From the sequence record SRR31156797_7709: 38,926 nucleotides of DNA; one strand, written 5' to 3'. The notes under the pieces were generated by a model, which saw nothing but the letters and a program-made list of their open reading frames with translations, had not been told where the DNA came from and searched no databases. This document shows positions 2 through 21,367 of the stretch, piece after piece (position 1 is the stretch's first letter; the number at the start of each line of letters is the position of its first letter). A program made the translations under genes and the position numbers.

Positions 2-1933
2 GGCTGGGATCGTCCCATTCTCTGTGATGAGAAGGTGTTCCAATATGGTGATGCCATCGCAATTGTTTGTGCTGAGACTGAAAAAATTGCAAAAGAAGCT
101 GCCAAGCTTGTCAAGGTCGAGTTGGAGCAACTTCCCGAGTACATGAGTGCCCCGGCAGCAATGGCCGAGGACGCAATGGAGATCCATCCCGGCACTCCTA
201 ATATTTACTATACTCAAAAAATAGCCAAGGGTGATGAGACATCGCCTATTTTTGATGCTGCCGATGTTGTTGTCGAGGGCGACTACTTTACTACCCGTCA
301 GCCGCATCTTCCTATTGAACCGGACGTCGGATTCGCTTACATCGACGATGAAGGGAAGCTCTGCATCCACTCCAAGTCTATCGGATTGCACCTCCACCTG
401 TACATGATTGCTCCTGGTCTTGGCGTGGAGCCAGAAAACATGGTTCTCGTTCAAAATCCAACAGGTGGTACTTTCGGTTATAAATTCAGCCCAACCATGG
501 AAGCCCTTGTTGGCGCCGCAGCTCTTGCCACCGGGCGTCCGGTATATCTTGGATATGACTACTACCAGCAGCAAACCTATACAGGAAAGCGTTCACCCCA
601 GTTCACTACCGTACGTATGGCAGCCACCAAAGACGGGAAACTCCAGGGAATGGAGACCGACTGGACAGTGGATCATGGGCCTTATTCCGAGTTTGGTGAT
701 TTGCTGACCATTCGCGGCGCACAGTACATTGGTGCTGGTTATGATATCCCAGCTATTCGGGGTGAAGGACGGACCGTATGTACTAACCACGCTTGGGGCG
801 CAGCTTTCCGTGGATACGGCGGACCTGAGGCAGAATTTCCATCTGAAGTACTGATGGACGAACTGGCGGAAAAGCTGGATATGGATCCGCTGGAACTGCG
901 TTACAAGAACGTCTATCGTGAAGGGTCTACAACTCCAACAGGGCAGGACCCAGAGGTTTACTCCTTGCCGGAGATGCTCGACAAAATTCGTCCCAAATAC
1001 GAGGCAGCCAAAGAGAAGGCCGCTGCTAATTCAACTGATGCAGTCAAGCGAGGCGTGGGTGTTGCAGTTGGTGTCTATGGTGCTGGGCTTGATGGGCCAG
1101 ACAGCTCAGAAGCAGATGCAGCGCTCAATCCAGATGGCACGGTCACCGTTTTCAATTGTTGGGAGGATCACGGTCAGGGTGCGGATATGGGTACTTTGGG
1201 TACAGCTCACGAAGCTTTGCGTCCCTTGGGTTTGAATCCGGATCAGATTAAGTTAGTCATGAACGATACCAGCAAGGCTCCCAATTCTGGTCCAGCTGGC
1301 GGTAGCCGTAGTCAGGTTATGGCTGGACAAGCAACAAAAAATGCCTGTGAGCTACTCATTGAAGGCATGAGGAAGGCCGACGGTTCTTTCCGGAGCTACG
1401 CCGAAATGGAGGCCGAAGGCCTCGATCTGCGTTACAACGGTAAGTTTACTGCTCCGGCTAGCGATTGCGATGAGAACGGTCAGGGTAAGCCATTCTGCTG
1501 CTACATGTACGGCGTGTTTATGGCTGAGGTCGCCGTGGAACTTGCAACTGGAAAGACCACAGTTGAGAAGATGACCATGGTGGCTGACGTTGGTAAGGTC
1601 AACAACTTCCTGGTGGTTGATGGTCAGATCTATGGTGGTTTAGCGCAGGGTATTGGTTTGGCGCTGACAGAGAACTATGAGGACATCAAGAAGCACTCCA
1701 CCTTAAAGGGTGCAGGATTCCCTTATATTAAGCAGATCCCTGATGATATGGAGATCATGTATGTAGAGACCCCGCGTCCTGACGGCCCCTTTGGTGCGTC
1801 CGGCGTTGGGGAAATCCCACTGTGTGCACCGCACCCAGCAATCATCAATGGAATCTACAAGGCCTGTGGGGTTCGAATCACTGAGCTCCCAGCATTGCCT
1901 GAGAAGGTACTTGCCGGACTGCAGAATAGATAA
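2..1933 (+). CDS. mop: Molybdopterin-dependent aldehyde oxidoreductase (Mop/xanthine oxidase family), 5'-truncated by the window edge
   Basis: Frame is open from position 2 (GWDRPILCDEKVFQY...). Moco-contact motifs GGTFGYK, AFRGYG, HGQG, GGSRS and catalytic GVGE are present. Stop TAA at 1931-1933. Confidence 0.93.
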   Translation, partial: GWDRPILCDEKVFQYGDAIAIVCAETEKIAKEAAKLVKVELEQLPEYMSAPAAMAEDAMEIHPGTPNIYYTQKIAKGDETSPIFDAADVVVEGDYFTTRQPHLPIEPDVGFAYIDDEGKLCIHSKSIGLHLHLYMIAPGLGVEPENMVLVQNPTGGTFGYKFSPTMEALVGAAALATGRPVYLGYDYYQQQTYTGKRSPQFTTVRMAATKDGKLQGMETDWTVDHGPYSEFGDLLTIRGAQYIGAGYDIPAIRGEGRTVCTNHAWGAAFRGYGGPEAEFPSEVLMDELAEKLDMDPLELRYKNVYREGSTTPTGQDPEVYSLPEMLDKIRPKYEAAKEKAAANSTDAVKRGVGVAVGVYGAGLDGPDSSEADAALNPDGTVTVFNCWEDHGQGADMGTLGTAHEALRPLGLNPDQIKLVMNDTSKAPNSGPAGGSRSQVMAGQATKNACELLIEGMRKADGSFRSYAEMEAEGLDLRYNGKFTAPASDCDENGQGKPFCCYMYGVFMAEVAVELATGKTTVEKMTMVADVGKVNNFLVVDGQIYGGLAQGIGLALTENYEDIKKHSTLKGAGFPYIKQIPDDMEIMYVETPRPDGPFGASGVGEIPLCAPHPAIINGIYKACGVRITELPALPEKVLAGLQNR

Positions 1934-2146: not shown

Positions 2147-4417
2147 ATGGAGCAGAAGGAACTGCGGGCATGGGAAGCCCTCTGTATTCAGGAAGAACCA
2201 CCGGCCTGCAGGGCCGGGTGTCCTTTGAATGTTGACGGACGGTCATTTGCCAGTGCCATGGCGAAAGGGCAGTGGAGTTCAGCCAGAGCGATCCTTGAAA
2301 AATCAATGCCCCTGGCTGGCATCATCTCCCGAATCTGTGAAGCTCCATGTGAACAATATTGTCTTAGAAAAGATCTTGGAGGCGCTGTTGCCATCGGTGC
2401 GCTTGAACGTGTCTGTGTCGATAATGCTCCAGTGCGGAGAAAGGCGTTTCGTTTGCCTCCTCGTCCTAAAAAAGTAATCACCGTCGGCGGCGGACCATCC
2501 AGCCTGACGGCAGCCTTTGACTTGGCGAAAAAGGGATATCCAGTCACGGTTTATTTTGCTGGTCAAAAACCGGGAGGATCCTTTAATAATTTCCCTGAGG
2601 AAATACTGCCTCAAACTGTAGTTGAGGAAGAGCTGAACTATTTGGAAAAACTCGGCGTCGCTTTTCGCCCACTTGAAAATTTCACTCTAGATTGTATTGC
2701 CTCAGCAGACAGCATCTATGTCGGTCAAGATGACATCTTGCCCGAAATACTCACTGTTACAATTCAAAAGCCAGACAGCGAGACCTTCGCCCTTGCTGAG
2801 CCAGGTTGGTTTTCCGGAGGAATGAGCGGCAAAGAGTATCGCTATCAGCACATAGCCAACATCTCTGAAGGAAGGCAGGCAGCAATTTCTATAGATCGCT
2901 ATTTACAGAATGCCTCGTTGATCTCTGGCCGGGCTGCCCTCAGAAACGGCAAAACCAAGCTGTACACCCGAACCGACCACATTCCTCCCCTTCCAAGAAA
3001 AGTACCGGTATCTGACGCCGGCTATACCCTTGATGAAGCAATAGAAGAGGCTGCACGATGCATTGATTGTCAATGCCTGGAATGCGTTACCCACTGTCAG
3101 TATCTCGAAGATTTCAACGCTTTTCCCAGGGTATATGCCAGGCAAATCTATAATAACTCTGCCATTGTTAAGGGTACCCACATGGCGAATACACTTATCA
3201 ATTCCTGTTCGCTGTGCAGACAGTGTGAGGAGGTATGCCCTAATGATTTTTCCATGGCTGACCTTTGTCTTCAGGCACGGCAAACCATGGTCCGTGAAGA
3301 CCGGATGCCGCCTTCGGCACACTGGTTTGCTCTTGAGGAAATGCACTCTGCCAGGACAGAAGGTTCGCTTGTGCGGCATGCACCTGGCACAGAGGCGAGT
3401 AATGTTCTGTTTTTTCCTGGCTGTCAACTGGGAGGGATTCGGCCGGAACAGACTCTACGTTTGTACGAACAGTTACTTGAGCTTCAACCCCTGACAGGGA
3501 TCTGGCTCGACTGTTGCGGGGCTCCAGCGCATTGGGCTGGCAGGGAGGAGGAGTTTGTAGGAATTATTAAACAGGTGGAAAAGGTTTGGCAGGAAATGGG
3601 TCGACCTCGGGTTGTGACGGCTTGTTCGACTTGTCTGAAAATGTTTCGAGATCACTTACCTGCAGTGGCAGTGGTGTCTGCATGGCGTGTACTTGCTGAG
3701 CATGTTTCTGATGATGGTGTTTTTGTGGAAGCCGTGGCGATTTCCGATCCATGTACAGCCAGAGACGATACAGAGACCAGAGCAGCGGTGCGAACATTGC
3801 TGGAAAGTCTTGGTCGGGTGGATGCACCTTTTCCCATGTCCGGGCAGTTAACCGAGTGTTGCGGCTTTGGTGGCCTGATGGACTGCGCCAATCCAGAGCA
3901 GGCACGCCAAGTGGCAGAAGCAAGGGTGGCCCAGACAGATGCTGAGATTGTCACCTACTGCGCCATGTGTCGTGATCAACTGGCGAGGACCGGCAAACCT
4001 GTTTCTCATATCCTTGACCTGCTGTTTAGTGATTTGGCCCATTCCGCAGAGGAGAGACCGCAGTCTATTTCAGCCAGAAGGGTAAATCGACGTCAGCTCA
4101 AATCAGCGCTGCTTAGCAGGTACTCACCTGAAGAACAGGAAGGCAAGGCAGCTTGGGAAGAGCTGGCGCTGATGATACCTGAAAAAGTGGCTGTCATGAT
4201 GGAAGAACGAAGAATCCTGGAAGACGACATCCGTAAAGTGCTCTTTGCCGTAGCAAGTGGTGGGCAGCGGTTTATTCACGATGAAAGTGGCCTTGCGGTT
4301 GCCTCTGGTGTTTTGGGCGCGGTCACTTTTTGGGTGGAATATGCAGTGGAAGAAGATCTTTACCGACTGGAACGCTGCTGGAGTCATCGAATGGTGATCA
4401 GGGGAGATAAGGCATGA
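2147..4417 (+). CDS. Multidomain Fe-S oxidoreductase: GltD/DPD-like N-terminal clusters, degenerate Rossmann fold, 4Fe-4S dicluster and CCG domains (DVU_1558-like)
   Basis: RBS AGGAG. Motifs PACRAGCP, ICEAPCEQYC, GGGPSS, CIDCQCLECVTHC, CSLCRQCEEVCP, then FPGC / CCG / ACSTC and DPC / CCGFGG / YCAMC. Confidence 0.85.
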   Translation: MEQKELRAWEALCIQEEPPACRAGCPLNVDGRSFASAMAKGQWSSARAILEKSMPLAGIISRICEAPCEQYCLRKDLGGAVAIGALERVCVDNAPVRRKAFRLPPRPKKVITVGGGPSSLTAAFDLAKKGYPVTVYFAGQKPGGSFNNFPEEILPQTVVEEELNYLEKLGVAFRPLENFTLDCIASADSIYVGQDDILPEILTVTIQKPDSETFALAEPGWFSGGMSGKEYRYQHIANISEGRQAAISIDRYLQNASLISGRAALRNGKTKLYTRTDHIPPLPRKVPVSDAGYTLDEAIEEAARCIDCQCLECVTHCQYLEDFNAFPRVYARQIYNNSAIVKGTHMANTLINSCSLCRQCEEVCPNDFSMADLCLQARQTMVREDRMPPSAHWFALEEMHSARTEGSLVRHAPGTEASNVLFFPGCQLGGIRPEQTLRLYEQLLELQPLTGIWLDCCGAPAHWAGREEEFVGIIKQVEKVWQEMGRPRVVTACSTCLKMFRDHLPAVAVVSAWRVLAEHVSDDGVFVEAVAISDPCTARDDTETRAAVRTLLESLGRVDAPFPMSGQLTECCGFGGLMDCANPEQARQVAEARVAQTDAEIVTYCAMCRDQLARTGKPVSHILDLLFSDLAHSAEERPQSISARRVNRRQLKSALLSRYSPEEQEGKAAWEELALMIPEKVAVMMEERRILEDDIRKVLFAVASGGQRFIHDESGLAVASGVLGAVTFWVEYAVEEDLYRLERCWSHRMVIRGDKA

Positions 4418-4623
4418 ATCTGAGTTTTATACCTGCAGACATGAACTGGACTTGCCAGCCTTGTGGAGAAAAGCTGGAGCCAGGAGTGGTTGAGTTGGAC
4501 TACATGGGCAATGTGTTCAAAGTGGAGCTGCCTGTGTGTCCCAAATGTTCGGCTGTGCTTATTTCTGAAGATCTGGCCATGGGCAGGATGTTGGAAGTAG
4601 AGCAATTGCTGGAGGACAAATGA
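4414..4623 (+). CDS. Small CxxC...CxxC metal-binding/redox protein (DVU_1557-like)
   Basis: 69 aa with CQPC and CPKC. ATGA overlaps with both neighbouring genes. Confidence 0.82.
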   Translation: MNLSFIPADMNWTCQPCGEKLEPGVVELDYMGNVFKVELPVCPKCSAVLISEDLAMGRMLEVEQLLEDK

Positions 4624-5330
4624 AGCCACTGTACTTGGCTGATTGTGTCCGTGAAGTTTTAGGTAAAAGTTTACGACCAGGAGGCGAGGCGCTCACTCGA
4701 CGAATGATGGAGCTGGTTCGCCTCACAACGGGAGATATGGTACTTGATGTGGGTTGTGGTGCCGGGACCAGTATGAGGTTGTTGCGCAAAAAAGATGCAT
4801 GTCGGGTTGTTGGGGTTGATTTCGATTACGGGCTGGCAACAGAGGCTCATAACAGCGGATTAGCCGTTGCCCAGGCCGATATGGCGCAGTTACCGTTGTT
4901 AACCGGTACGATAGATAGGGTACTATGTGAATGTGCTTGGAATCTCACTGATAAAAAACAATCGTTGGCAGAAATTGTTAGGGTGCTGCGTCCCGGAGGT
5001 CTGCTGGCACTCAGTGATATTTATCTTCGTAACCTGGAAGGCGCACACGGCAAGAGCGTATGGCCCAATCGCTCCTGTTTTTTCCAGGCAACTGATCTGG
5101 AAACTGTCCGGGAAGTGGTGAGTAAGGCAGGACTTGAAATTTTGAAACTGGAAGATCACAGTTTGCTTCTTAAAAGAACTGCGGCGGAGTTTGTCTTTGT
5201 TCATGGATCCTTGCAGGGATTTTGGGAGTCTGTCATGGGCGATAGCAAACGGGCAAAGGCGGTTTGTGCAGCTTCAGCAGCTGCCAGGCCTGGCCTATTT
5301 TTGCTTATTGGACAAAGGAAGAAAGCATGA
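4620..5330 (+). CDS. Class I SAM-dependent methyltransferase (DVU_1556-like)
   Basis: LRPGG at the N-terminus, motif I VLDVGCGAG, and EIVRVLRPGG. Confidence 0.88.
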   Translation: MKPLYLADCVREVLGKSLRPGGEALTRRMMELVRLTTGDMVLDVGCGAGTSMRLLRKKDACRVVGVDFDYGLATEAHNSGLAVAQADMAQLPLLTGTIDRVLCECAWNLTDKKQSLAEIVRVLRPGGLLALSDIYLRNLEGAHGKSVWPNRSCFFQATDLETVREVVSKAGLEILKLEDHSLLLKRTAAEFVFVHGSLQGFWESVMGDSKRAKAVCAASAAARPGLFLLIGQRKKA

Positions 5331-5761
5331 ATGAATATGATGTTGATATCCTGCGGCTTGCTGGTCAGGGGTACTGCTGCGCGCAGATAGTCGTGCAGCT
5401 TGCCTTAGAGTTGCAGGGTAAAGAAAACAAGGGGCTCGTTCGTGCCATGGCATCTCAGTGCCATGGCTTTCCAGATAACAGAGGTACTTGTGGGGCGTTG
5501 ACTGGAGCAGCATGCGTACTTGCTTATTATGCAGGTAAAGGGGGGGCTGATGAGGAAGAGCATGAGCGGTTTCCCTTGATGCTTGCAGAACTTGGCGATT
5601 GGTTTGAGCGTCAATACGCATCGCTTTATGGTGGTATCGCTTGCAGTGACATTGTTGATGATGGGAAAGCGGATACCACTGTTTGCGGAGGGCTCGTTTC
5701 AGCGTGTTTTGGTCAGGCAATGACGATTCTAGTGGAGAACGGCTTTGACCCGGAAGGCTGA
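5327..5761 (+). CDS. C-GCAxxG-C-C family putative redox protein (DVU_1555-like)
   Basis: Start re-assigned to ATG 5327 (ATGA overlap with the upstream stop). Motifs GYCCAQ, GTCGALTGA, IAC and VCGG. Confidence 0.85.
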   Translation: MNEYDVDILRLAGQGYCCAQIVVQLALELQGKENKGLVRAMASQCHGFPDNRGTCGALTGAACVLAYYAGKGGADEEEHERFPLMLAELGDWFERQYASLYGGIACSDIVDDGKADTTVCGGLVSACFGQAMTILVENGFDPEG

Positions 5762-5762
5762 A

Positions 5763-7124
5763 ATGGATTTTAAAAATTTCCAACAGGTTGAGAGTGTTTG
5801 CCCGGTGTGCCTGGAACGGATACCAGGGCAGCTGGTCGGGCGCGGAGAGTCTGTCTTTTTAGAAAAAAGCTGTCCGGAGCATGGTCCTTTTTCTGCCACG
5901 GTCTGGAAGGGAGAACCAGCATTTTCTTCCTGGTTCAGGCCTAAAATTCCTTATTATGGCGGCAAGCGAGAGCAAACAGGAAAGGGTTGTCCTTTTGATT
6001 GCGGGCTCTGTGAACGCCATACCCAGCGAACCTGTACCGCGCTGGTGGAGATAACCTCGCGCTGCAATCTAAACTGTCCTGTCTGTTTTGCCGACAGCGG
6101 TAAAGGTTCTGATCTTGATCTGGATACTCTAACCCGGATGTTTGCATCTATAATGACGAGGACAGGTGGGTGCAACCTGCAGCTCTCAGGAGGAGAGCCA
6201 ACGGTCCATAACGATTTGGAGCGTATTGTTGGATTAGCCCAAGAGGCGGGCTTTACTTTTATTCAACTGAATACCAACGGTATCCGACTGGCCGATGATC
6301 CGCAGCTTTCGTTTCGACTCAAAAGAGCTGGGCTTTCGTCGGTCTTTTTGCAGTTTGACGGTGTGGATGACAAGGTCTTCCGCTCGCTTCGCGGGCGTGA
6401 ACTTTTTGCCAGCAAGTGCAGGGCAATAGAGAACCTGGCTGATGCCGGTATCGGGATTGTACTGGTACCGACCATCGTGCGTGATGTGAATATGGAGCAG
6501 CTCTGGGAAATCGTTCGATTTGGTATGGAACGTCAGCCCCATGTACGAGGCGTGCATTTTCAGCCAATGAGTTATTTTGGGAGATTTCCCGTCGATTTTG
6601 TGCCCGATCATGTAACCCTTCCTGAGGTGATGAGCGGTTTAGCTCTGCAGAGCGATAGTATGCTGCATGTTGAAGATTTTCGCCCTCCTGGATGTGAGCA
6701 TGCCCTTTGCTCATTTTCGGCCAAGTATATCCAACAGGATGATGGTCGCCTGATGCGCCTAGGAACTAATAGCTGTGATTGTACGCCCGTGCCTGCAGAG
6801 CAAGGTGCTTTGACTTCAATTGGGGTAACTGCCAGGCAGTGGGCAGGAGTTGTCAAGGAATCCGGCGGCCCGTCTGGACAGCCCGTTGATGAACTTGAAC
6901 GTTTTCTACAACGAGCCAGGACCCATACTTTTTCAATTTCAGGCATGGCCTTTCAGGACTGTTGGTCTCTGAATCTTGAGCGGTTGCAGGGGTGCTGTAT
7001 ACATGTGGCCAGACCTGATGGCCAGCTTATCCCCTTTTGCAGTTTCAACCTCACTGCTTGCGATGGGACTTCTCTCCATCGTCCTTCCCTGAACCTTCTT
7101 CATCCAGGGCAGAAAGATGAATGA
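5763..7124 (+). CDS. Radical SAM enzyme, MJ0619/tetraether-synthase-like superfamily (TrsS-type)
   Basis: CNLNCPVC (CxxxCxxC) and SGGEPT. Also N-terminal SVCPVC...CPEHG and GCPFDCGLCERH, and C-terminal GCCIHV...IPFC. Likely start ATG 5763. Confidence 0.88.
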   Translation: MDFKNFQQVESVCPVCLERIPGQLVGRGESVFLEKSCPEHGPFSATVWKGEPAFSSWFRPKIPYYGGKREQTGKGCPFDCGLCERHTQRTCTALVEITSRCNLNCPVCFADSGKGSDLDLDTLTRMFASIMTRTGGCNLQLSGGEPTVHNDLERIVGLAQEAGFTFIQLNTNGIRLADDPQLSFRLKRAGLSSVFLQFDGVDDKVFRSLRGRELFASKCRAIENLADAGIGIVLVPTIVRDVNMEQLWEIVRFGMERQPHVRGVHFQPMSYFGRFPVDFVPDHVTLPEVMSGLALQSDSMLHVEDFRPPGCEHALCSFSAKYIQQDDGRLMRLGTNSCDCTPVPAEQGALTSIGVTARQWAGVVKESGGPSGQPVDELERFLQRARTHTFSISGMAFQDCWSLNLERLQGCCIHVARPDGQLIPFCSFNLTACDGTSLHRPSLNLLHPGQKDE

Positions 7125-8454
7125 GCGGCCCATTCAGACACCGGTAGATTCCCTGGTTGGACGTCGGTTGGCTATCCATGGGGTGATGGGAAGAAAAGAG
7201 CTGGAACAGGCTCAAATGAAGGCATTGCGCAGTACACTCCACTATGCTTTAGAGCATAGTGGCTATTACCAGGAACAGCTTGCCGGTTGTGATCCCCAAC
7301 AAATAAAGAGCTACTGTGATCTTGAGGGGATTCCTTTTCTCACACCTTCTGCTATCTCCAAACAGGGGCACCGGTTGCTCTGTGTTTCCCAAAGTCGCAT
7401 TGCCAGAGTGGTGACCCTGCAAACCTCTGGCAGTACAGGTGTGCCGAAACGGTTTTCTTTTAGCACAGATGACTTGGAGGCTACTTCTGATTTTTTCCTG
7501 CACGGAATGCGCACTTTCGTGAATGAGGAAGATCGGGTGCTGGTCCTGTTGCCCTACCAACAGCCTGCCAGTGTTGGTGAACTGCTTATCGCTGCACTTA
7601 TCGGTGGTGGAATTCATGCAGAGGGCATGTGGCCGCCACCGATTACCGGTCCGGAGTTGCCAAAGCAGATACGAGAGGGCCGTATAACCTGTGTGGTCGG
7701 TTTGCCCCAACATCTTCTGGCTGTGTCGAGCTTGGTTGCTTTTGGGCAGTTGACGTCGATGTTGCTCTGTTCCGATTATGCCTCCCCAGCATTGCGCAGT
7801 CGTATTGAAGATAACTGCGGCTGCCGTACCTATCTCCATTACGGTACTACTGAGTCTGGGCTGGGGGGAGGTGTGGAGTGCCTGTTGCATGCCGGATGTC
7901 ATATTCGGGAATCAGATCTCTTGGTGGAGATCATTGATCCGCACACTGGTCGGCAGCAGTCCGATGGTAAAGCCGGAGAAGTGGTATTGACCACCCTTGG
8001 CCGGGAAGCAATGGCGCTGATACGATATCGTACTGGGGATATTGCTGTCCTGGATCGGTCAACCTGTGCCTGTGGAGGAGTGACTGCCAGGCTTCGTTCA
8101 ATACGTGGACGGATGGCTGGTTGTTTGCTGCCTTCCGGTGTCCTCCTGCACAGTCAGGATATGGATGACTATCTTTTTCAGGTACCAGGACTTCTTGATT
8201 ACCGGGTGCGCTTGGGCCGTGGCAGGGTGGATCAACTGCATATTGATTATATGGTAGTTCCGGGATTCATGGAGATTGTTGGCGAGCTTATGGCTATGAC
8301 AGCCAAGATCCCTGCCATCCGTGATAATCTTGTCAACGGCAACCTGGTACTGGGAATATTTAAACAGGTCGAATCTTTTGCGGCCATTCATACACTCAAA
8401 CGAACTCTTATCGATCAACGCACAGCTGGAGAATTATATGCGGTATGTTCTTGA
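7117..8454 (+). CDS. PaaK-like AMP-dependent CoA ligase (DVU_1553-like)
   Basis: P-loop TSGSTG, HYGTTE and IRYRTGD adenylate-forming motifs. Confidence 0.87.
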   Translation: MNERPIQTPVDSLVGRRLAIHGVMGRKELEQAQMKALRSTLHYALEHSGYYQEQLAGCDPQQIKSYCDLEGIPFLTPSAISKQGHRLLCVSQSRIARVVTLQTSGSTGVPKRFSFSTDDLEATSDFFLHGMRTFVNEEDRVLVLLPYQQPASVGELLIAALIGGGIHAEGMWPPPITGPELPKQIREGRITCVVGLPQHLLAVSSLVAFGQLTSMLLCSDYASPALRSRIEDNCGCRTYLHYGTTESGLGGGVECLLHAGCHIRESDLLVEIIDPHTGRQQSDGKAGEVVLTTLGREAMALIRYRTGDIAVLDRSTCACGGVTARLRSIRGRMAGCLLPSGVLLHSQDMDDYLFQVPGLLDYRVRLGRGRVDQLHIDYMVVPGFMEIVGELMAMTAKIPAIRDNLVNGNLVLGIFKQVESFAAIHTLKRTLIDQRTAGELYAVCS

Positions 8455-9451
8455 TAAACTCATTGAAACCCTTGAGCAGGGAGAGCCTGCAGTATTAGGC
8501 GCTATAGTTAAAAGTTCAGGATCTGCTCCGAGAACTTCTGGTGCCCGTATGCTGGTCCTGGCAGATGGCACCCTTGTCGGCAGTGTTGGTGGCGGCAGTG
8601 TTGAAGGGAACTGTCACGCAGAGGCTCGGAAGTTGCTGGCCAATGGTCATAATTATAAAGAGGTGAAATGTGATTTAAGTGCAGCTGATGCAGCCGAATC
8701 AGGGATGGTTTGTGGTGGCGCTGTTTGTGTTCTGCTGCAGAAGGTGGTGCCCCAAGCTGTTGAGCAGTTCCGGCAACTGCGTCATTGTTATCAAAATGGA
8801 TCGCGACCTTTGCTGGTTACCCAGCTGCCAGCTGCTGATTCACCGCCGCAATTGATGACACTGGGTATCGGAAAGGATGATGAGGTTCCTAGTGTGCTCC
8901 GAGAGAAGGCTTTAGCTAAGAAGAAACGGGTTTCATTTATCGTAAGCCATGCAGGGAATGATTTTTTTATAGAGCCCATGGTCAAGCAGGGTACCGTGCA
9001 TCTGGCAGGGGCTGGTCATGTGGCGCTTGCGACGGCGCATCTTGCATCCTATGTGGGGTTTGAGGTCATTGTCATGGATGATCGGGATGAGTTTGCAAAT
9101 AAAGAGCGGTATCCCCAGGCGAAAAAGGTGCGGGTTCTGGAGGGATTTGATGCTTGTTTCTCAGAGCTTGGGCCTGATGATTATGTGGTGATTGTTACCC
9201 GCGGCCACCAATATGATAGGGATGTCCTGGCCCAGGCATTACTGACCGATGCAGGATATATCGGAATGATAGGCAGCAGCAGTAAACGAAAGGCCACCTA
9301 TGCTTCCCTTTTGAGATCAGGGTTCACTGAATTTGATCTGGAGCGTGTTCACAGTCCCATCGGACTCTCCATTGGCTCTGATACTCCCCAGGAAATCGGC
9401 ATGAGCATTGTGGCAGAGCTGGTACAGTTCCGTGCGGCAATGAATCAATGA
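8438..9451 (+). CDS. xdhC: XdhC/CoxI family Moco insertion chaperone
   Basis: Start re-assigned to ATG 8438 (GGAGA RBS). Motifs GSAPR..GARM, GSVGGG, GMVCGG, GAGHV, VTRGH, YIGMIGS and PIGL. Confidence 0.9.
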   Translation: MRYVLDKLIETLEQGEPAVLGAIVKSSGSAPRTSGARMLVLADGTLVGSVGGGSVEGNCHAEARKLLANGHNYKEVKCDLSAADAAESGMVCGGAVCVLLQKVVPQAVEQFRQLRHCYQNGSRPLLVTQLPAADSPPQLMTLGIGKDDEVPSVLREKALAKKKRVSFIVSHAGNDFFIEPMVKQGTVHLAGAGHVALATAHLASYVGFEVIVMDDRDEFANKERYPQAKKVRVLEGFDACFSELGPDDYVVIVTRGHQYDRDVLAQALLTDAGYIGMIGSSSKRKATYASLLRSGFTEFDLERVHSPIGLSIGSDTPQEIGMSIVAELVQFRAAMNQ

Positions 9452-10551
9452 AGCTGGGTGCGATTATTTTAGCAGCGGGATACTCTTCCCGTATGGACGG
9501 GTTTAAACCGCTTATGCGCCTTGGGGAACATTGTCTTGTCGGGCATAATATACGGCTTTTTAAAACAAAGGGTATTGACCGAGTCGTAGTTGTGGTTGGG
9601 CACCGGCATGAAGAAGTCGAAGCCGAGGTGCAAAGGCAAGGTGCGGAACCACTCTATAATCCTGATTTTGATAAGGGAATGTTTTCATCTGTGTGTACGG
9701 CAGTGTTGAGAATGTCGGAGCTGGATGGTTTTTTCCTCCTGCCGGTGGATATTCCGTTGGTTCGCCCGGTGACCATAGACCTGCTTGAATCCGGCTTTGA
9801 TGGTACAAAGGTGATGTATCCTTGTCGTGACGGTATGCGGGGACACCCGCCGCTCATTCCTGGTTGTTTTGTCAAGGAGATCATCGAATATAATGGTGAA
9901 GGCGGGTTGCGAACCCTGCTGCAGCGTTTTCCAGGTAAAGATGTGCCGGTTTGGGATGACGGTGCTTTTATGGATGCAGATGCTCCCGAGGATTTTGCTC
10001 GGCTTGCTGATCGTTTGTCGAGAATGGAAAAAGGATCGCGAGTTGAGGCTGAATCCATTGCAGCAATGCGTATGCCGCAGCGGGGAATAGCACATGGGCA
10101 GGCTGTTGCCAAAGTTGCATGTACTTTGGCCAGGGAATTGGCTCGGAATGGGAACGATATGGATCTGGATATCGTATATAACGGAGCACTCCTCCATGAC
10201 GTGGCCAAGGGGCAGCCGCAGCATGAAGCACGGGGGGCGGAAATGATGCGCATGTGTGGTCTAGGGCAACTGGCCGATGTGGTTGGCAGTCACCGTGATG
10301 CATTACCGGTAGCGCCGGAAAAGGTGGGGGAAAAAGAGGTGGTCTGTCTGGCTGATAAACTTGTCCGTGGGGATCGTTTGGTCTCGGTTAGTGAGCGGTT
10401 CGAAGAGAAACTCAGTTTTTATAAAGATGACCCGGAAGCCTGTAAGGCAATTCGATCGCGGATGAACATAGCCATTGCTCTGCAGAAGGCCGTGGAACAG
10501 GCAACATCGAAGACTATTGAGCAGTTGCTCGGTGCCGAGGGGAAAGGGTGA
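9448..10551 (+). CDS. MocA-like nucleotidyltransferase fused to a C-terminal HD domain (DVU_1551-like)
   Basis: IILAAGYSSRM, GMFSS, PVDIP and GHPP in the N-terminal part. H...LLHDVAKG..H...H...LADK in the C-terminal part. Confidence 0.87.
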   Translation: MKLGAIILAAGYSSRMDGFKPLMRLGEHCLVGHNIRLFKTKGIDRVVVVVGHRHEEVEAEVQRQGAEPLYNPDFDKGMFSSVCTAVLRMSELDGFFLLPVDIPLVRPVTIDLLESGFDGTKVMYPCRDGMRGHPPLIPGCFVKEIIEYNGEGGLRTLLQRFPGKDVPVWDDGAFMDADAPEDFARLADRLSRMEKGSRVEAESIAAMRMPQRGIAHGQAVAKVACTLARELARNGNDMDLDIVYNGALLHDVAKGQPQHEARGAEMMRMCGLGQLADVVGSHRDALPVAPEKVGEKEVVCLADKLVRGDRLVSVSERFEEKLSFYKDDPEACKAIRSRMNIAIALQKAVEQATSKTIEQLLGAEGKG

Positions 10552-11150
10552 GCACCATCTATCTTATTCGGCATGGTGAAATTTCTGCATCTTCGCCACG
10601 TCGCTTCATAGGCCAAAGCGATTTAGAACTGACTGCACACGGGCGAGAGCAGGTGAAAAGTATCGGTAAATACTTGACGACCTCTTCTATTGATAGAGTC
10701 GTCTCCAGCCCCTTGCTACGCTGCCGCGAGAGCGCAGACATCATCGGGTCTGCCGTCGGATGCAGTCCTGAAATCATAAACGAGTTGAGCGAAATTGCTC
10801 TGGGAGCATGGGAGGGGTTGAGCGTAGTCGATGTTCAACGGCAGTACCCAGGAGAATATGAAGCGCGCGGCAAAGATATTACCGGATACCGTCCTCTGGG
10901 TGGGGAAAGTTTTGCAGATTTACTCAAACGGGTATGGCCTGCATTTGTCGAGTTGGTGGAGGCTGGTAACGAGAAAACAGCTGTGTTAACACATGCAGGA
11001 GTTATCCGGGTTCTTCTCTGTCATCTTTTGGGAATGCCCCTTGTAAATTTATTTCGCCTGGGGCAGAGTTATGGCTGCATCAACGTGGTGTACTTTGACA
11101 AGGGGAAGTATCGTCTGGAATGTATCAATAGGACCGTAAACAACCGGTGA
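10548..11150 (+). CDS. Histidine phosphatase family protein (CobC/GpmB-like)
   Basis: RHGE, SSPLLRC, GESF and THAGVIR. GTG start overlaps the upstream TGA. Confidence 0.88.
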   Translation: MSTIYLIRHGEISASSPRRFIGQSDLELTAHGREQVKSIGKYLTTSSIDRVVSSPLLRCRESADIIGSAVGCSPEIINELSEIALGAWEGLSVVDVQRQYPGEYEARGKDITGYRPLGGESFADLLKRVWPAFVELVEAGNEKTAVLTHAGVIRVLLCHLLGMPLVNLFRLGQSYGCINVVYFDKGKYRLECINRTVNNR

Positions 11151-11264
11151 GTGAAAGGTAAGCGTTTCTTGCTCTGTCCCTATTCTCCCTCCCCTTGTCC
11201 AGCCCATGCAGGTGTAAACAAATTCTTCATAATTTTGCTGACGGGGAATTCACAGCCCCGAAAA

Positions 11265-11305
11265 AGCTTATTGAAGCAACGCTGTTAGCGATGTTTCAAT
11301 AAGCT
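11265..11305. terminator. Stem-loop between convergent operons; U-tract on the minus (ilvBN) strand
   Basis: Arms AGCTTATTGAA / TTCAATAAGCT with an inner CGCT/AGCG stem. A-run at 11261-11265. Confidence 0.7.
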
Positions 11306-11332
11306 GGTTAAAGGGCGAAATCTGGATAATTT

Positions 11333-11806
11333 CTACTGTTTTTCCATGGCAGTTACCCCGGTGCGGGCTATCTCAATGATATATTCTCTGCCGATTTCAT
11401 CAAGAAAGGAATCAATCTGCCTGGTGGAACCTGCAACCTGCAGGATATAGGCATCTTCGCTCTTTTTCTCAAGTACTTCGAAATTATAACGACCATGAAA
11501 AGCTTCGAGATGGGCGGCATCTACCTCCAGTTGGATGATGGCTACCTCTCGCCAGTAGCTGTGGTCGGTATCAAGTTCTTTTGCAGAAATAACTTCGGTG
11601 AATTTTTCCAGTTGTTTGATTATCTGCTCGACTTTGGCTTCGTCATCCTCGCGCAGGGTAATGGTCATCCGGCTGATCCCGGGGACTCGAGAGCTGCATA
11701 CTGTTAATGTATCGACATTGTACATCTTTTTCCTGATCAACATCGATACCTTGTTAAGGACCCCAGGGCGATCAAGCATAAAGGTAAGTATCGCACGTCG
11801 GATCAT
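11333..11806 (-). CDS. ilvN: Acetolactate synthase small (regulatory, ACT) subunit
   Basis: DRPGVL..V...MYNVDTL, SRMTI, QIIKQLEK and EIARTG. Overlaps the ilvB stop. Confidence 0.9.
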   Translation of the reverse strand: MIRRAILTFMLDRPGVLNKVSMLIRKKMYNVDTLTVCSSRVPGISRMTITLREDDEAKVEQIIKQLEKFTEVISAKELDTDHSYWREVAIIQLEVDAAHLEAFHGRYNFEVLEKKSEDAYILQVAGSTRQIDSFLDEIGREYIIEIARTGVTAMEKQ

Positions 11807-13581
11807 GATTCTTCTCCATTCTTCTCTGTGGTTGCTGAAGGCTTCTCTGGTTCCAGCGATGGACGTTTGATAATCATGTCGTCAAAACCTCCACCGGCAG
11901 GGATCATAGGTAAGATAACTTCGTTGGGGTCGCAAATGAATTCCAGAATAATCGCTCCTTGATGGTCAATGGCCTGCTGCAGTGCGGGTACGATTTCTTC
12001 GGGTGTTTCTATCTTGATGTAGGGGATATCATATGCTTGAGCAATGCTGCCAAAATCGGGGCTTTGCATTGGCGTTCCTGCATATCGGCCGTCAAAAAAC
12101 AACGTCTGCCATTGCCGCACCATGCCGAGGTAGCCGTTGTTAAGTACAAGGATCTTGATGTCGACCTGCTGCTCCATGATGGTGCCCAGCTCCTGCATGT
12201 TCATCTGGAACCCACCGTCACCGCTGATGGACCACACTCGCTCTGTTGGGCGCGCCAGCTTGACCCCGATTGCCAGCGGCAGGGATGCCCCCATGGTCCC
12301 GGCGCCACCGGAGGCAAACCAGCTGTTCTCGGTCTGGTAGTTATAGAAACGGGCGGTCATCATCTGGTGCTGGCCAACATCAGGAACTATTAGATCTTTC
12401 CCCTCTGTTAGCTCCGAGAGTTGATGGACAATGGATTTCATCAACAACTTGCCTGCATCACCAACCGAACTTTCAATTTCCTGCTGCAGGTCTTCCTCCA
12501 TCAGTTGGCGGTAAAGGTTGATTTTTTCAAACCACCGTTTGCGGGGCTTAAACGTGAGCATGGGGTCTCCGAGCATCACGTGAAGAGTGCGGTATACGTC
12601 GGCATTGATTGCCACGCTGGTTGCCACATTTTTATTAATTTCTGAAGGATCAATTTCTACATGGATGACATCCGCGTTCTGCGCATACTCATTGAGTTTG
12701 CCTGTCACACGATCATCAAAGCGCATCCCAAAAGAGATCAGCAAGTCAGCTTCCATAATTGCCCGGTTTGCCTCGACCGTACCGTGCATTCCCATCATGC
12801 CTAGGCTTAAGGGATGGTCGGCAGGTAATGCGGAGATGCCGTGAAAAGTAAAAGCAATGGGGATATTGACCTTTTCGGCAAATTTTTGCAGCATTGTACC
12901 TGCATTGCTGCTGATGACTCCATGGCCACAGAACAGGACTGGTCGCTGACTCCTGTTAATCAGGGTGATTGCTTTTTGCATCACCTCCCTTTCCGGGGAA
13001 GGGTGAAAAAAGAAACCAGGCAGATCTGGCTGGAAATTGTTGGCATCAAATTGATACTCTTCAGGAACCTGTTGGTCTTGAACATCTTTTGGGATATCTA
13101 TCAGCACTGGACCGGTTCGGCCTGTTGCAGCAACATAAAAAGCTTCATGTACAGTAGGCTCGACCTCTTCTGCTGCCAGCGGCATGTAGGTCTGTTTGCA
13201 GATAGGCATCATTACCCCAACCACATCGCTTTCCTGAAAGGCATCAGTGGCTATCACCCCTGTGGCTACCTGACCTGTGACTGCAATAACAGGTATCGAG
13301 TCCATGTAGGCATCGGCAATACCGGTTGTCAGATTCATTGCTCCAGGACCTGAAGTGGCCATACAGACGCCGATTTGCGGGTTCTGGGTAGAGAGTGAAG
13401 CCCTGGAAATTCCCTGGGCCATAAATGTTGCCCCTTGCTCGTTACGAGACATGACAAAGTGGAAGTCACCTAGTTTGTCCATCTCATCAAAAATTGGCAT
13501 AATGGCCCCGCCAGTGTACCCGAAAATATACTTGACGCCCTTTGCCTTCAACGCCTGCAGCATCTTTTTCTTTCCTGTCAT
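11803..13581 (-). CDS. ilvB: Acetolactate synthase large subunit, biosynthetic type
   Basis: IFGYTGGA, RNEQGA, TSGPGA, DAFQE, GMRFDDRVTG, DVGQHQM, ThDP motif GDGGFQMN...NN and GMVRQWQ. Confidence 0.94.
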   Translation of the reverse strand: MTGKKKMLQALKAKGVKYIFGYTGGAIMPIFDEMDKLGDFHFVMSRNEQGATFMAQGISRASLSTQNPQIGVCMATSGPGAMNLTTGIADAYMDSIPVIAVTGQVATGVIATDAFQESDVVGVMMPICKQTYMPLAAEEVEPTVHEAFYVAATGRTGPVLIDIPKDVQDQQVPEEYQFDANNFQPDLPGFFFHPSPEREVMQKAITLINRSQRPVLFCGHGVISSNAGTMLQKFAEKVNIPIAFTFHGISALPADHPLSLGMMGMHGTVEANRAIMEADLLISFGMRFDDRVTGKLNEYAQNADVIHVEIDPSEINKNVATSVAINADVYRTLHVMLGDPMLTFKPRKRWFEKINLYRQLMEEDLQQEIESSVGDAGKLLMKSIVHQLSELTEGKDLIVPDVGQHQMMTARFYNYQTENSWFASGGAGTMGASLPLAIGVKLARPTERVWSISGDGGFQMNMQELGTIMEQQVDIKILVLNNGYLGMVRQWQTLFFDGRYAGTPMQSPDFGSIAQAYDIPYIKIETPEEIVPALQQAIDHQGAIILEFICDPNEVILPMIPAGGGFDDMIIKRPSLEPEKPSATTEKNGEES

Positions 13582-14010: not shown

Positions 14011-14104
14011 GGCTGTATCTGTATGTACTTTGAACTTTGATATTAGGAAGGTGTGCCACCGAGTGGTTCCTTGATGAAGTTGAATGTTTACAAAACAGGA
14101 GAGA

Positions 14105-14968
14105 ATGATGAAGCACCGGAAAAAAGTGGGTACAGTTCTAACCATATTCAGTTTACTCATGCTTATTTCGGCATGTACTGATTTGACGCCTATACAAGAA
14201 TGGTCTAGCACATCGCTTGAAGCAACTCAGTATAACAAGTTGGTCATGACGTATTCTAGCACTCCAGAGAGAATGAAACGATATGATCCGTCACAGACAT
14301 GGGATGACATTCTTAATTCGCGTAAGAATCAATCTTTAGCACTTAAAGAGCTGCTTGTGGTTGTTTCAGATTATATGAGTGTTTTAGCAGCTCTCTCGGC
14401 CGATAGTACAGTTGATTACAGCAAAGATGTTGATACTCTTAGCAAGAGTGTTGCGAAGTTCAATGCTGGGATTACATCTGGTAATAAACAAATTTCCCCG
14501 GAAACGGTTGAGGCAGCCGGGGCATTAGTTAAAACAATATTGAATGCAGCCGCTAAATTGTACCAAGCTAAACAAGTTAGAAATGTTGTTGAACAGGCAA
14601 ATGAACCACTGCAAAAAATTATAGGGAAACAAGGTGATTTGTTTCAAGTTGTTGATAAGGATTTTCGTCGTGATTTAGTGATAGAAGCAACGGAAATAGA
14701 TGGTTATTACGATAAGTTGTCAAGAATCGGTAATCCTTCGGATGCTGCTAAAGAGTCCATGGCAGAATGGAAAGAAGTGCGTATAGAGCAAAATGCAAAA
14801 CAATTAACAGCTATTGATGCCTACTTGGAAATTCTTGGCAACATCGCAATGGGGCACCAAGAACTTTACAATAACCGCAATACGCTTGATTCCGAAGAAT
14901 TGGTTAAGCAGTTACGTGTACTTGTGGTGGAACTTCGTAAGCAGATTCAGATACTTGCTCAATCTTAA
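14105..14968 (+). CDS. Hypothetical lipoprotein, probably alpha-helical
   Basis: RBS AGGAGA. Basic N-region KHRKK, hydrophobic core and lipobox ISAC (Cys24). AT-rich. Start is 14105 or 14108. Confidence 0.8.
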   Translation: MMKHRKKVGTVLTIFSLLMLISACTDLTPIQEWSSTSLEATQYNKLVMTYSSTPERMKRYDPSQTWDDILNSRKNQSLALKELLVVVSDYMSVLAALSADSTVDYSKDVDTLSKSVAKFNAGITSGNKQISPETVEAAGALVKTILNAAAKLYQAKQVRNVVEQANEPLQKIIGKQGDLFQVVDKDFRRDLVIEATEIDGYYDKLSRIGNPSDAAKESMAEWKEVRIEQNAKQLTAIDAYLEILGNIAMGHQELYNNRNTLDSEELVKQLRVLVVELRKQIQILAQS

Positions 14969-14983
14969 TTAGGGGTGATGAAA

Positions 14984-15400
14984 ATGTCTATAAGTGTAGA
15001 ACAAGCACGTGCCGTTGCAGATGAATTTATGATAGCCGCCCAAACTATTGATGCCTATTTAGACAAAAATTTTAACAACATTACCAGAGCAGAGTATGAA
15101 TACCTTTATGAATCATTCAAGACATTGCTACGTATTTCTAGTTTTGCGACCACTATAGCTGTCGGCCTTGCCATTGAAGAAACGACTGCGTCTGTGAAAC
15201 CACTGGAGTCAGTTATATCGGAAGCAAACCAGACCATTGAAAAGTTACAAAAGGTAGGGCAGGTTATACGATTAACTGCTTCGTTAACAGACCTTGCGGC
15301 TGGCATTGTGTCGCAAGACCCCCGGGCTGTCATCGCGTCTGCTAAAAATATAACAGCCACAGTAACTGCAATAAATAAAGAAGAAGAGCTTGAAGCGTAA
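14984..15400 (+). CDS. Hypothetical helical protein (about 138 aa)
   Basis: Open frame starting just after the lipoprotein stop, RBS AGGGGTGA. Alternative starts at 14975 and 14978. No recognisable motif. Confidence 0.78.
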   Translation: MSISVEQARAVADEFMIAAQTIDAYLDKNFNNITRAEYEYLYESFKTLLRISSFATTIAVGLAIEETTASVKPLESVISEANQTIEKLQKVGQVIRLTASLTDLAAGIVSQDPRAVIASAKNITATVTAINKEEELEA

Positions 15401-15465
15401 ATATGGATAAAGGTTGATATGCAAGATGCACTAGTTAAAAATAAAAAATGATGGGAGACGCTGGC

Positions 15466-17795: not shown

Positions 17796-18323
17796 ATGCA
17801 TGATGTCGGGCAAACTCTACAGGTAGAAAAAAGGGATGCTGCTACCCAGAATTCGCAGTGGCGTACTGTTGATCGTACCATGCGACTCAATGGTAATCAT
17901 CCGGAAGCACTCATTGAAACCCTCCATGTAGTACAGAATACCTTTGGCTATATTGATCGTGATGCCATGGAGTATGTGGCCCATGGGCTGCATGTGCCAC
18001 TCAGCCAGGTCTATGCGGTAGCCACCTTTTATCACTCCTTCACTCTAAAACCACCTGGCGAGCACACCTGTGTTATCTGCACGGGCACCGCCTGCTATAT
18101 TGGCGGATCATCCTCTTTGCTGGCCGCTGTCCATGATTACGCCGGTATTGCACCCGGCGAGACCACCAAAGACGCAAGGGTTTCACTTTTGACTGCACGT
18201 TGTCTTGGCTCATGTGGTTTGGCGCCAGCGGGTGTATTCGATGGACAGGTGAGCGGTAAGTTGAAACCCTCTGACGTTGTACAACAATTACAAAGGTGGG
18301 GAATTGATGACGCTGACACTTGA
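17796..18323 (+). CDS. hoxE: Bidirectional hydrogenase diaphorase subunit HoxE (NuoE-like)
   Basis: RBS GAGGAGG. LIETLH..Q..FGY, VATFYH, CTGTAC and CLGSC [2Fe-2S] motifs. Confidence 0.92.
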   Translation: MHDVGQTLQVEKRDAATQNSQWRTVDRTMRLNGNHPEALIETLHVVQNTFGYIDRDAMEYVAHGLHVPLSQVYAVATFYHSFTLKPPGEHTCVICTGTACYIGGSSSLLAAVHDYAGIAPGETTKDARVSLLTARCLGSCGLAPAGVFDGQVSGKLKPSDVVQQLQRWGIDDADT

Positions 18324-20720: not shown

Positions 20721-20804
20721 ATAGTTACTGATTATGTAAAAATGGACAACAAGCACACACGGCTCCACCCAGTATCATAAAAAAGGAAAAGGGAAGAGGC
20801 TGCA

Positions 20805-21338: not shown

Positions 21339-21367
21339 TCAAGGTGGCCTACAAAGAGGAGGGGGAT

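Follow-up and report, generated by a model that had tools for sequence, protein, structure and literature searches.

A bacterial TrsS-type radical SAM protein, related to the archaeal tetraether synthase Tes, in an aldehyde oxidoreductase operon

The TrsS gene and its family

The stretch of DNA analyzed here, referred to below as the window, comprises 38,926 nucleotides of sequence record SRR31156797_7709. The gene under study lies at positions 5763 to 7124 of its plus strand and encodes a radical S-adenosylmethionine (SAM) protein, TrsS, related to the archaeal tetraether lipid synthase Tes (also GDGT-MAS or MJ0619). It is a frame of 453 amino acids without internal stops, and the opposite strand of the same interval contains many stops in translation. 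The start codon is ATG 5763, preceded by a Shine-Dalgarno-like stretch (GGAAGG) and located one base after the stop codon of a gene for a C_GCAxxG_C_C (CGA) protein. Numbered by residue, the product carries SVCPVC at 11-16, CPEHG at 37-41, GCPFDCGLCERH at 75-86, the radical SAM motif C101-x3-C105-x2-C108, and CCIHVARPDGQLIPFC at 411-426. A preliminary description of the window had quoted these motifs and this open reading frame (ORF), together with the absence of an in-frame TGA, and all were recovered on translation.

Searches against Pfam identified Radical_SAM (E 5e-20) and the N-terminal zinc ribbon Zn_ribbon_HMPTM (PF23545; E 1.5e-17, 63.3 bits), and the similarity of the protein to its matches in Pfam, NCBIfam and, for GDGT-MAS, the PDB is far beyond chance. 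It matches the NCBIfam model for TrsS (NF045646) with 632 bits, above the cut-off of 490 (E 4.1e-190), residues 8-440 corresponding to positions 2-441 of the 441-position model. By comparison, the Tes model (NF045702) yields 312.7 bits, below its cut-off of 450, in two stretches of which the better covers residues 9-327. Homologues with 53-86% identity occur in Desulfobulbales and Desulfovibrionales and are listed at NCBI under the name 'radical SAM (seleno)protein TrsS', while two JGI homologues carry the older name pterin dimethyltransferase. Among the matches listed, the nearest TrsS sequences are those of a Desulfobulbus metagenome-assembled genome (MAG; 89%) and of Desulfogranum marinum (87%). 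Of 14 control genomes, M. jannaschii, S. acidocaldarius and M. acetivorans were the only ones with a match above the Tes cut-off; the TrsS model also matched these three archaea, in no case above the TrsS cut-off. Conversely, none of eight TrsS-bearing genomes contained a match above the Tes cut-off.

For phylogenetic analysis, Tes sequences were collected by searching a representative library with a bacterial Tes-like protein (L098) as query. NCBIfam classification of 22 proteins (19 from this search and three encoded at the loci described below) placed eight over the Tes cut-off and four close to it. The tree comprised 53 rows, namely 36 TrsS (35 out of a set of 84 TrsS sequences plus the second copy of locus L054), eight Tes, four near-Tes and five bacterial Tes-like sequences; L094, L096 and one locus with a masked run were omitted. 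It was obtained by a quick IQ-TREE search with Shimodaira-Hasegawa-like approximate likelihood ratio test (SH-aLRT) support only, and midpoint rooting was used for drawing only. A single branch (SH-aLRT 100) with a stem of 1.13 changes per column separates all 36 TrsS rows from the remainder, and the window protein is nested within the TrsS clade together with P0007 (Desulfogranum mediterraneum) and P0015 (Desulforhopalus) with a support of 97. By profile score and tree position, TrsS is thus best described as a bacterial cousin family of Tes, and the window protein as an ordinary TrsS member without a selenocysteine codon. The preliminary description had regarded TrsS as merely a related family; the protein itself scores as TrsS (632 against 490 bits) and lies deep within that clade. 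According to the available part of a review table (PMC13188914), TrsS is credited to Haft and Tolstoy (2025, mSystems 10:e0141724); for a selenoprotein TrsS, the review cites WP_327020591.1.

The lack of an in-frame TGA does not affect membership, because the family is named '(seleno)protein' and because none of 73 TrsS matches from 401 sampled genomes of the phylum contains an internal stop; TrsS exceeds its cut-off in 40 of these 401 genomes. A pattern scan of species-representative genomes confirmed at least 597 TrsS stretches among 600 matched, and 80 loci were kept, in none of which a TGA is aligned to a Cys. One contig of an uncultured Syntrophaceae MAG (L024) has an in-frame TGA at 4069-4071, at about residue 377, followed by strongly conserved sequence, and its TrsS is devoid of the C338-x-C340 pair. 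This TGA is a candidate selenocysteine codon that may also be an assembly error, and it stays unconfirmed because no hairpin resembling a selenocysteine insertion sequence (SECIS) was detected there (z −0.70). The TGAs of another locus (L009) were rejected as selenocysteine codons, since they occur among numerous further stops and resemble assembly errors. Truncated TrsS homologues in the databases may represent miscalled starts or contig ends.

Metal sites, predicted fold and departures from Tes

The top PDB relative of the window protein is GDGT-MAS (7TOL/7TOM; E 1.1e-76), with residues 9-309 and 385-430 aligned. An AlphaFold2 model built from the 84-sequence alignment reached a predicted local distance difference score (pLDDT) of 92.6 and a predicted template modeling score (pTM) of 0.93. 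Foldseek matched this model to 7TOM with E 1.1e-40 and a template modeling (TM) score of 0.79, and VIA-align superimposed it on GDGT-MAS over 405 residues (model residues 2-450) with Z 44.9, a root mean square deviation of 2.5 Å and 34% identity over the aligned residues.

In the available part of the Tes structure paper (PMC9433317), the ligands of the rubredoxin site are given as C9, C12, C33 and H36 and those of the N-terminal cluster as C73, C77, C80 and one His; a CX3CX2C radical SAM motif and a C-terminal cluster with a labile Met439 complete the set. The same source describes a bond between a substrate carbon and a cluster sulfur that occurs as an intermediate. Mapped onto TrsS with a chain offset of 20, the putative metal sites are as follows.

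Rubredoxin-like site: C13, C16, C37 and H40, assigned by alignment with the Tes ligands
N-terminal [4Fe-4S] cluster: C76, C80, C83 and H86, assigned by alignment with the Tes ligands
Radical SAM cluster: C101, C105 and C108, assigned by alignment with the Tes ligands
C-terminal [4Fe-4S] cluster: C316, C411 and C426, assigned by conservation, and M395, assigned by alignment with Tes

When 35 TrsS and 12 Tes sequences were aligned jointly, each of the 15 metal-ligand positions of Tes was conserved to 90% or more in TrsS as well as in Tes, and in the set of 84 TrsS sequences, with identities down to 41%, all 15 are invariant. C316, C411, C426 and M395 are the likely ligands of the C-terminal cluster because they are invariant, whereas C311, C338, C340 and C412 vary. 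The predicted fold of TrsS matches that of Tes from end to end, and the ligands of all four Tes metal sites are kept. The preliminary description had assigned the protein to the MJ0619/Tes family. Its claim of close relatedness is borne out by the PDB match and the VIA-align score, and the auxiliary Cys, His and Met residues do align with the Tes ligands at 15 out of 15 positions. Membership of the Tes clade, on the other hand, is contradicted by the profile score as well as by the tree: as the Tes score is below the cut-off (312.7 against 450 bits), the protein falls, strictly speaking, outside Tes.

Despite the shared ligands, other Tes positions are replaced. Tyr459 and Met439 are completely conserved across 1000 archaeal homologues, as stated in the available part of the structure paper (PMC9433317). 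In the joint alignment, the position of Tyr459 is V415 in TrsS (V in 30/35; Y in 10/12 Tes), and the His adjoining the labile Met of Tes (12/12) is A396 (A in 33/35). Further differences are found at C91 (35/35 in TrsS; C in 4/12 Tes), N170 (34/35; A in 11/12 Tes), H265 (35/35; S in 10/12 Tes) and F272 (34/35; T in 11/12 Tes). Residues 336-340 are G, S or C in TrsS where Tes has F, L or M; they include the C338-x-C340 pair (C in 31/35 and 27/35), opposite which Tes has F, L, M or gaps. For the two hydrophobic lipid-binding pockets of Tes, this replacement of F, L or M is the one indirect hint that TrsS may differ there.

The operon and its counterparts in other genomes

In the window, TrsS is the sixth of ten co-directional genes. 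Its nine neighbors all score above their NCBIfam cut-offs, correspond to the known DVU_1551 to DVU_1559 type of neighborhood and occur in the same order in related loci.

2-1933, plus strand: MOP-type molybdopterin aldehyde oxidoreductase, 5' end cut by the window (NF045668 pterin_aldehy, 1188.6 bits, cut-off 1100, model positions 263-905)
2147-4417, plus strand: pyridine-nucleotide-disulfide oxidoreductase/dicluster flavoprotein of DVU_1558 type with two HdrD-like CCG domains (NF045663, 944 bits, cut-off 530)
4414-4623, plus strand: CxxC...CxxC zinc ribbon of 69 amino acids, 'DVU_1557 family redox protein' (DUF7479; NF045645, 99.4 bits, cut-off 60)
4620-5330, plus strand: class I SAM methyltransferase of the DVU_1556 family (NF045667, 214 bits, cut-off 155)
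5327-5761, plus strand: C_GCAxxG_C_C (CGA) protein of the DVU_1555 family (NF045669, 167 bits, cut-off 103)
5763-7124, plus strand: TrsS, Tes-like radical SAM enzyme (NF045646, 632 bits, cut-off 490)
7117-8454, plus strand: PaaK-like AMP-dependent ligase of the DVU_1553 family, with an 8-nt overlap with TrsS (NF045666, 382.8 bits, cut-off 300)
8438-9451, plus strand: XdhC-family aldehyde oxidoreductase maturation factor (NF045664, 386.8 bits, cut-off 350)
9448-10551, plus strand: MocA-like NTP transferase of the DVU_1551 family fused to an HD domain (NF045665, 404.5 bits, cut-off 315; Pfam NTP_transf_3 and HD)
10548-11150, plus strand: CobC-like histidine phosphatase, last of the coupled run (TIGR03162, 164.6 bits, cut-off 162.9)

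Pfam domains are MoCoBD_1 and MoCoBD_2 in the aldehyde oxidoreductase and Fer4_20, NAD_binding_8, Fer4_17 and CCG, the latter in two stretches, in the dicluster protein. From the dicluster gene onward every junction is an overlap or a 1-base gap, indicating translational coupling: the DUF7479 ORF overlaps each of its neighbors by 4 nt, the start of the CGA gene was refined to ATG 5327 overlapping the methyltransferase stop (ATGA), and XdhC starts at the in-frame ATG 8438, before the ligase gene has ended. The 213-nt gap between the aldehyde oxidoreductase and dicluster genes contains, at 1994-2014, a hairpin with a T-run that resembles a terminator; the accessory genes may therefore have lower or separate expression. 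A consensus scan for promoters and terminators gave no enrichment over shuffled sequences. At the gathering threshold, Rfam had no match in the whole window, including any riboswitch for the molybdenum cofactor (Moco), and the gap gave a chance-level match (E 0.63). Pfam and NCBIfam scans revealed no sulfur or selenium donor genes (cysteine desulfurase, SelD) among the genes of the cluster.

Elsewhere in the window, positions 17796-22792 encode HoxE, a HoxF-like protein and HoxU, followed by small and large [NiFe] hydrogenase subunits, a gene content that points to a soluble NAD-linked bidirectional hydrogenase. Three consecutive ORFs at 14084-16425 (294, 141 and 325 amino acids), upstream of a phosphonoacetaldehyde hydrolase gene (16796-17626), lack an NCBIfam match at E up to 1e-5, and the first of them (294 amino acids) also lacks a Pfam match at E up to 0.01.

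The partner proteins were compared with solved structures and across homologues. The closest solved relatives of the ligase in the PDB are phenylacetate-CoA ligases. Across 60 ligase sequences, C255, C317-x-C319, H241 and H262 are invariant, which is not typical of PaaK and points to either metal binding or a catalytic thiol. Among solved structures, the methyltransferase is closest to O- and N-methyltransferases acting on small molecules. In 58 sequences its E104-C105 is invariant and C153 is 82% conserved; their counterparts in arsenic methyltransferase chains, by a weak match (E 1e-5), are for C105 and C153 the As(III)-binding thiols Cys174 and Cys224, respectively. Four cysteines are invariant both in the CGA protein (C18, C55, C106 and C120; 65 sequences) and in DUF7479 (73 sequences). 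No solved relative of the CGA protein was found by sequence at E up to 1, and a prediction of a complex between TrsS and the CGA protein, run without the alignments, scored 0.00 against a mark of 0.34 and speaks neither for nor against such a complex.

The neighborhoods of the 80 loci were searched by tblastn with the window proteins, requiring a coverage above 50% (at least 70% for DUF7479). DUF7479 was found in 72 of the 80 loci, the PaaK-like ligase in 69 (60 of the 62 with enough downstream DNA), the CGA protein in 67, the methyltransferase in 63 and the dicluster protein in 59. The MOP-type aldehyde oxidoreductase was present in 50 loci (48 of the 64 with enough flank), XdhC and the NTP transferase (MocA-HD) in 38 each (34 and 32, respectively, of the 62 with enough flank), and the CobC-like phosphatase in 31 (downstream in 29 of 62 with enough flank).

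Eight loci that lack the MOP-type oxidoreductase or look unusual were further scanned with Pfam. The module adjoins a tungsten-type AFOR (AFOR_N/AFOR_C) and an aldehyde dehydrogenase in L015 and L036, a molybdopterin oxidoreductase of the bis-molybdopterin guanine dinucleotide (bis-MGD) type with an FAD subunit, MoeA and MOSC in L010, and FlpD/HdrA-like/CCG (Flx/Hdr-type) proteins in L054 and L062, both from Dehalococcoidia. An XDH-family molybdoenzyme is encoded near TrsS in L046, and an AOR-like gene, a dicluster gene and DUF7479 lie upstream in L057. In L010, L011, L015, L036 and L054, the C-terminal ~100 residues of the dicluster protein form a separate gene beside DUF7479. From the partner counts, the neighborhood scans and this stand-alone domain, the module therefore consists of an inherited core, comprising the small dicluster C-terminal domain, DUF7479, the methyltransferase, the CGA protein, TrsS and the ligase, and of a large redox partner that varies. 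This small core is found repeatedly in different phyla.

Several loci show individual peculiarities. The Dehalococcoidia MAG locus L054 carries tandem TrsS paralogues at 9989-11389 and 11417-12769, the second of which scores 559 bits, over the TrsS cut-off; Flx/Hdr-type genes precede the pair, and a ligase and a major facilitator superfamily (MFS) transporter follow it. In two Bacillota loci (L041:9968-12145 and L057:6303-8369), the C-terminus of TrsS is fused to DUF5714 (PF18978). CbiM/CbiN cobalt-transport genes are found nearby, no C_GCAxxG_C_C match was obtained in either locus, and the DUF5714 tail has CxxC...CxxC at its start and a TCGAxxG motif like that of the CGA protein. A remote homology of DUF5714 to the CGA protein was nonetheless rejected as unsupported (BLASTP E 0.14; hhalign probability 0.4% with a two-sequence profile), only TCGAxxG being common to both. 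In an Acidobacteriota genome (G004, locus L093), MocA-HD and TrsS share one open frame of 918 amino acids without a stop, which represents a fusion or else very tightly coupled genes, with a start inside the frame; adjacency of the two genes also occurs in L069, L074 and L079.

Possible reactions and comparison with known systems

Apart from Tes, no enzyme is known to join two inert sp3 carbons to each other. The substrate of TrsS is more likely a non-lipid compound, and Tes-like C-C or C-S coupling on an acyl-adenylate or acyl-CoA supplied by the adjoining ligase is plausible. We give an even chance to a reading in which TrsS applies Tes-type radical chemistry to a soluble or carrier-bound, ligase-activated substrate, as part of a module coupled to low-potential redox enzymes. 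TrsS would cleave SAM reductively and abstract hydrogen from an unactivated carbon; the substrate radical may then be parked on the methionine-gated C-terminal cluster, in the manner of the carbon-sulfur bond between substrate and cluster in Tes, before a C-C or a C-S/C-Se bond is formed. The substrate would be a carboxylate activated by the PaaK-like ligase, not a membrane lipid, and the product might next be handled by the co-inherited methyltransferase and the four-cysteine CGA protein. The DUF7479 zinc ribbon and the HdrD-like dicluster flavoprotein would link the module to enzymes with very low-potential electrons: in the operon of the window presumably the molybdenum aldehyde oxidoreductase, which has XdhC/MocA genes of its own for cofactor insertion, and elsewhere a tungsten aldehyde oxidoreductase or an Flx/Hdr-type complex.

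Several points weigh against this reading. The notion that the substrate is not a lipid derives from gene context and residue replacements, and a literature search, excluding the paper that named the family (Haft and Tolstoy 2025), returned no experiment on any TrsS. The variable partners agree with several views besides that of low-potential electrons, and the pterin enzymes present in most loci are just as compatible with a cofactor role. No MOP-type aldehyde oxidoreductase was found within 10 kb in 16 of 64 loci, so that the link to this enzyme is frequent, not obligatory. In addition, a quick tree with SH-aLRT support only does not decide between TrsS as a sister of Tes and TrsS nested within it, because the tree is unrooted.

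Among the alternatives, TrsS might install a C-S (or C-Se) bond on the ligase-activated acyl substrate via a cluster-sulfur adduct, an explanation with a modest chance of being correct. An ArsM-like methyltransferase would then methylate the chalcogen, or the thiol(s) would form a disulfide-type substrate for the HdrD-like CCG domains, and aldehyde oxidation would thereby have a thiol/disulfide electron acceptor of its own, analogous to LbpA-bound lipoate in sHdr systems or to CoM-S-S-CoB. The two CCG stretches of the dicluster protein, the alignment of methyltransferase C105/C153 with Cys174/Cys224 of arsenic methyltransferase, the cysteine-rich partners with four invariant Cys each (CGA and DUF7479), the family name '(seleno)protein', the TrsS-specific Cys pair 338/340 and the candidate in-frame TGA at ~377 in L024 are in line with it. 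So is the bond between substrate carbon and cluster sulfur described in the available part of PMC9433317, given that TrsS keeps the C-terminal cluster ligands and the Met. However, neither a cysteine desulfurase nor SelD was seen among the cluster genes of the window, the methyltransferase is closest in the PDB to O-/N-methyltransferases, and its ArsM match is weak (E 1e-5); moreover, the L024 TGA, without a SECIS-like hairpin, may be an assembly error, and 0/73 matches have an internal stop. A more specific proposal, to which we attach a rather small probability, is that the core module (ligase, TrsS, ArsM-like methyltransferase, CGA protein and DUF7479) makes a novel thiol-, methylthio- or selenol-bearing cofactor or carrier, into which TrsS inserts S or Se at an unactivated carbon by way of the cluster-sulfur adduct that is no more than an intermediate in Tes, and which serves as dedicated disulfide-type acceptor for the HdrD-like dicluster protein. 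If true, such a cofactor would be a heterodisulfide-style outlet for low-potential electrons from aldehyde oxidation in anaerobic bacteria. The possibility that TrsS and its partners instead modify, mature or help insert the pyranopterin cofactor of the adjoining aldehyde oxidoreductase is likewise improbable, even though MOP-type oxidoreductases accompany TrsS in 48 of 64 loci, XdhC and MocA-like genes lie inside the same coupled operon, and other pterin enzymes occur where the MOP-type enzyme is absent (tungsten AFOR in L015 and L036; bis-MGD enzyme, MoeA and MOSC in L010). The shared 918-aa frame of MocA-HD and TrsS in an Acidobacteriota genome and the second structural relative of TrsS, MoaA, a radical SAM enzyme of Moco biosynthesis (Z 21.7), also favor a role in cofactor tailoring. 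Yet the similarity to MoaA is that of the radical SAM core common to both, L054 and L062 have Flx/Hdr-type genes and no pterin enzyme within ~6.5 kb, and XdhC (34/62) and the NTP transferase (32/62) are far from as constant as the ligase (60/62). Crystal structures of D. gigas MOP reportedly contain an ordinary cytosine dinucleotide cofactor, which counts against tailoring as well. As for the pterin methyltransferase label mentioned in the preliminary description, relatives do bear it (two JGI names and a Pfam domain name, the latter confined to the N-terminal zinc ribbon PF23545), but the authors of the Tes structure paper (PMC9433317) state that they were unable to corroborate the pterin methylase findings for MJ0619 on which it draws, the older annotation of MJ0619 being 7,8-dihydro-6-hydroxymethylpterin dimethyltransferase. 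Only genomic context connects TrsS to pterin enzymes.

TrsS could alternatively be a protein or peptide maturase that modifies DUF7479 or the CGA protein to yield a protein-derived cofactor or crosslink. This we hold to be quite unlikely: DUF7479 and the CGA protein are well conserved with ligand-like invariant Cys, for which metal-binding redox proteins are a better fit than precursor peptides, Dehalococcoidia-type loci without CGA retain TrsS and the ligase, and a PaaK-like ligase suggests a small-molecule acid. These considerations are set against the frequent company of DUF7479 (72/80 loci) and CGA (67/80), the single base between the CGA stop and the TrsS start, and the presence of SkfB, SuiB and anSME among the structural neighbors below Tes and MoaA (Z 15-18). 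The TrsS-DUF5714 fusions of L041 and L057, which lack a CGA match and end in a tail with CxxC...CxxC and TCGAxxG, would also agree with a maturase, but DUF5714 and CGA are not significantly similar (BLASTP E 0.14; hhalign 0.4%). A true bacterial synthase of tetraether or membrane-spanning lipids, acting on bacterial lipids as Tes does in archaea, is highly improbable. The whole-chain fold match to GDGT-MAS and the 15/15 ligand positions would be expected of such an enzyme, and ester-linked phosphatidic acid is also bound by Tes according to the available part of PMC9433317. TrsS nevertheless scores under the Tes cut-off and occupies a separate long branch, the conserved Tyr and His of Tes are replaced, and a Cys-x-Cys pair stands at hydrophobic Tes positions. 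In the operon, Pfam and NCBIfam identified genes for redox and cofactor functions and none for lipid biosynthesis, and where branched tetraethers are possibly made, the genomes have, beside TrsS, a different Tes-like paralogue of full length. The published bacterial synthase of membrane-spanning lipids, Mss, is, in the part of the literature available, a different enzyme.

The TrsS family and its neighborhood are already catalogued (NF045645, NF045646 and NF045663 to NF045669), and the window adds an ordinary, complete, selenocysteine-free copy from a Desulfobulbales-like organism. This copy by itself matters little because it is one more orthologue of a family named by NCBI curators. The family, with the complete cofactor set of Tes, is widespread in anaerobes (at least 597 stretches in species representatives), almost always together with a PaaK-like ligase and usually with an aldehyde oxidoreductase. 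Knowledge of its reaction would reveal further uses of Tes-type chemistry and might account for the accessory genes that accompany the aldehyde oxidoreductase of Desulfovibrio, an enzyme with a long history of study.

Compared with known systems, the window copy shares with TrsS NF045646 the full-model score above the cut-off, the placement within the clade and the catalogued neighbors, without notable difference. MoaA (GTP 3',8-cyclase; PDB 1TV7 and 2FB2) is the next-best relative in structure and sequence and has the radical SAM core and a C-terminal auxiliary cluster in common with TrsS, but its Z score is 21.7 against 44.9 for Tes, it is devoid of the rubredoxin-like and N-terminal cluster domains, and the NCBIfam MoaA models score only 75-80 bits on the window protein against cut-offs of 231-325. 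A separate full-length Tes-like paralogue is encoded in three TrsS-bearing genomes, two of Acidobacteriota and one of Anaeromyxobacter (L094, L096 and L098). These paralogues, of ~620-710 amino acids, share with TrsS the superfamily, the zinc ribbon, the radical SAM motif and the C-terminal Met/Cys positions. They differ in lacking the GCPxDCGLC motif of the N-terminal [4Fe-4S] cluster, in keeping the Tes-type Tyr ('IPY') and in matching the Tes model from end to end (2-483), although still below its cut-off (302-324 bits). With L094 and L096 omitted from the 53-row tree, the bacterial Tes-like paralogues form a clade of their own apart from TrsS (SH-aLRT 99), and they are better candidates than TrsS for bacterial tetraether chemistry. 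With Tes itself (MJ0619; PDB 7TOL and 7TOM; NF045702), TrsS shares the four-domain architecture and the 15 ligand positions, including the labile Met. In contrast to Tes, TrsS is ~50-90 residues shorter, its middle region (310-384) has no sequence alignment to GDGT-MAS, and it is a bacterial protein encoded in a redox/cofactor operon, whereas Tes belongs to lipid metabolism.

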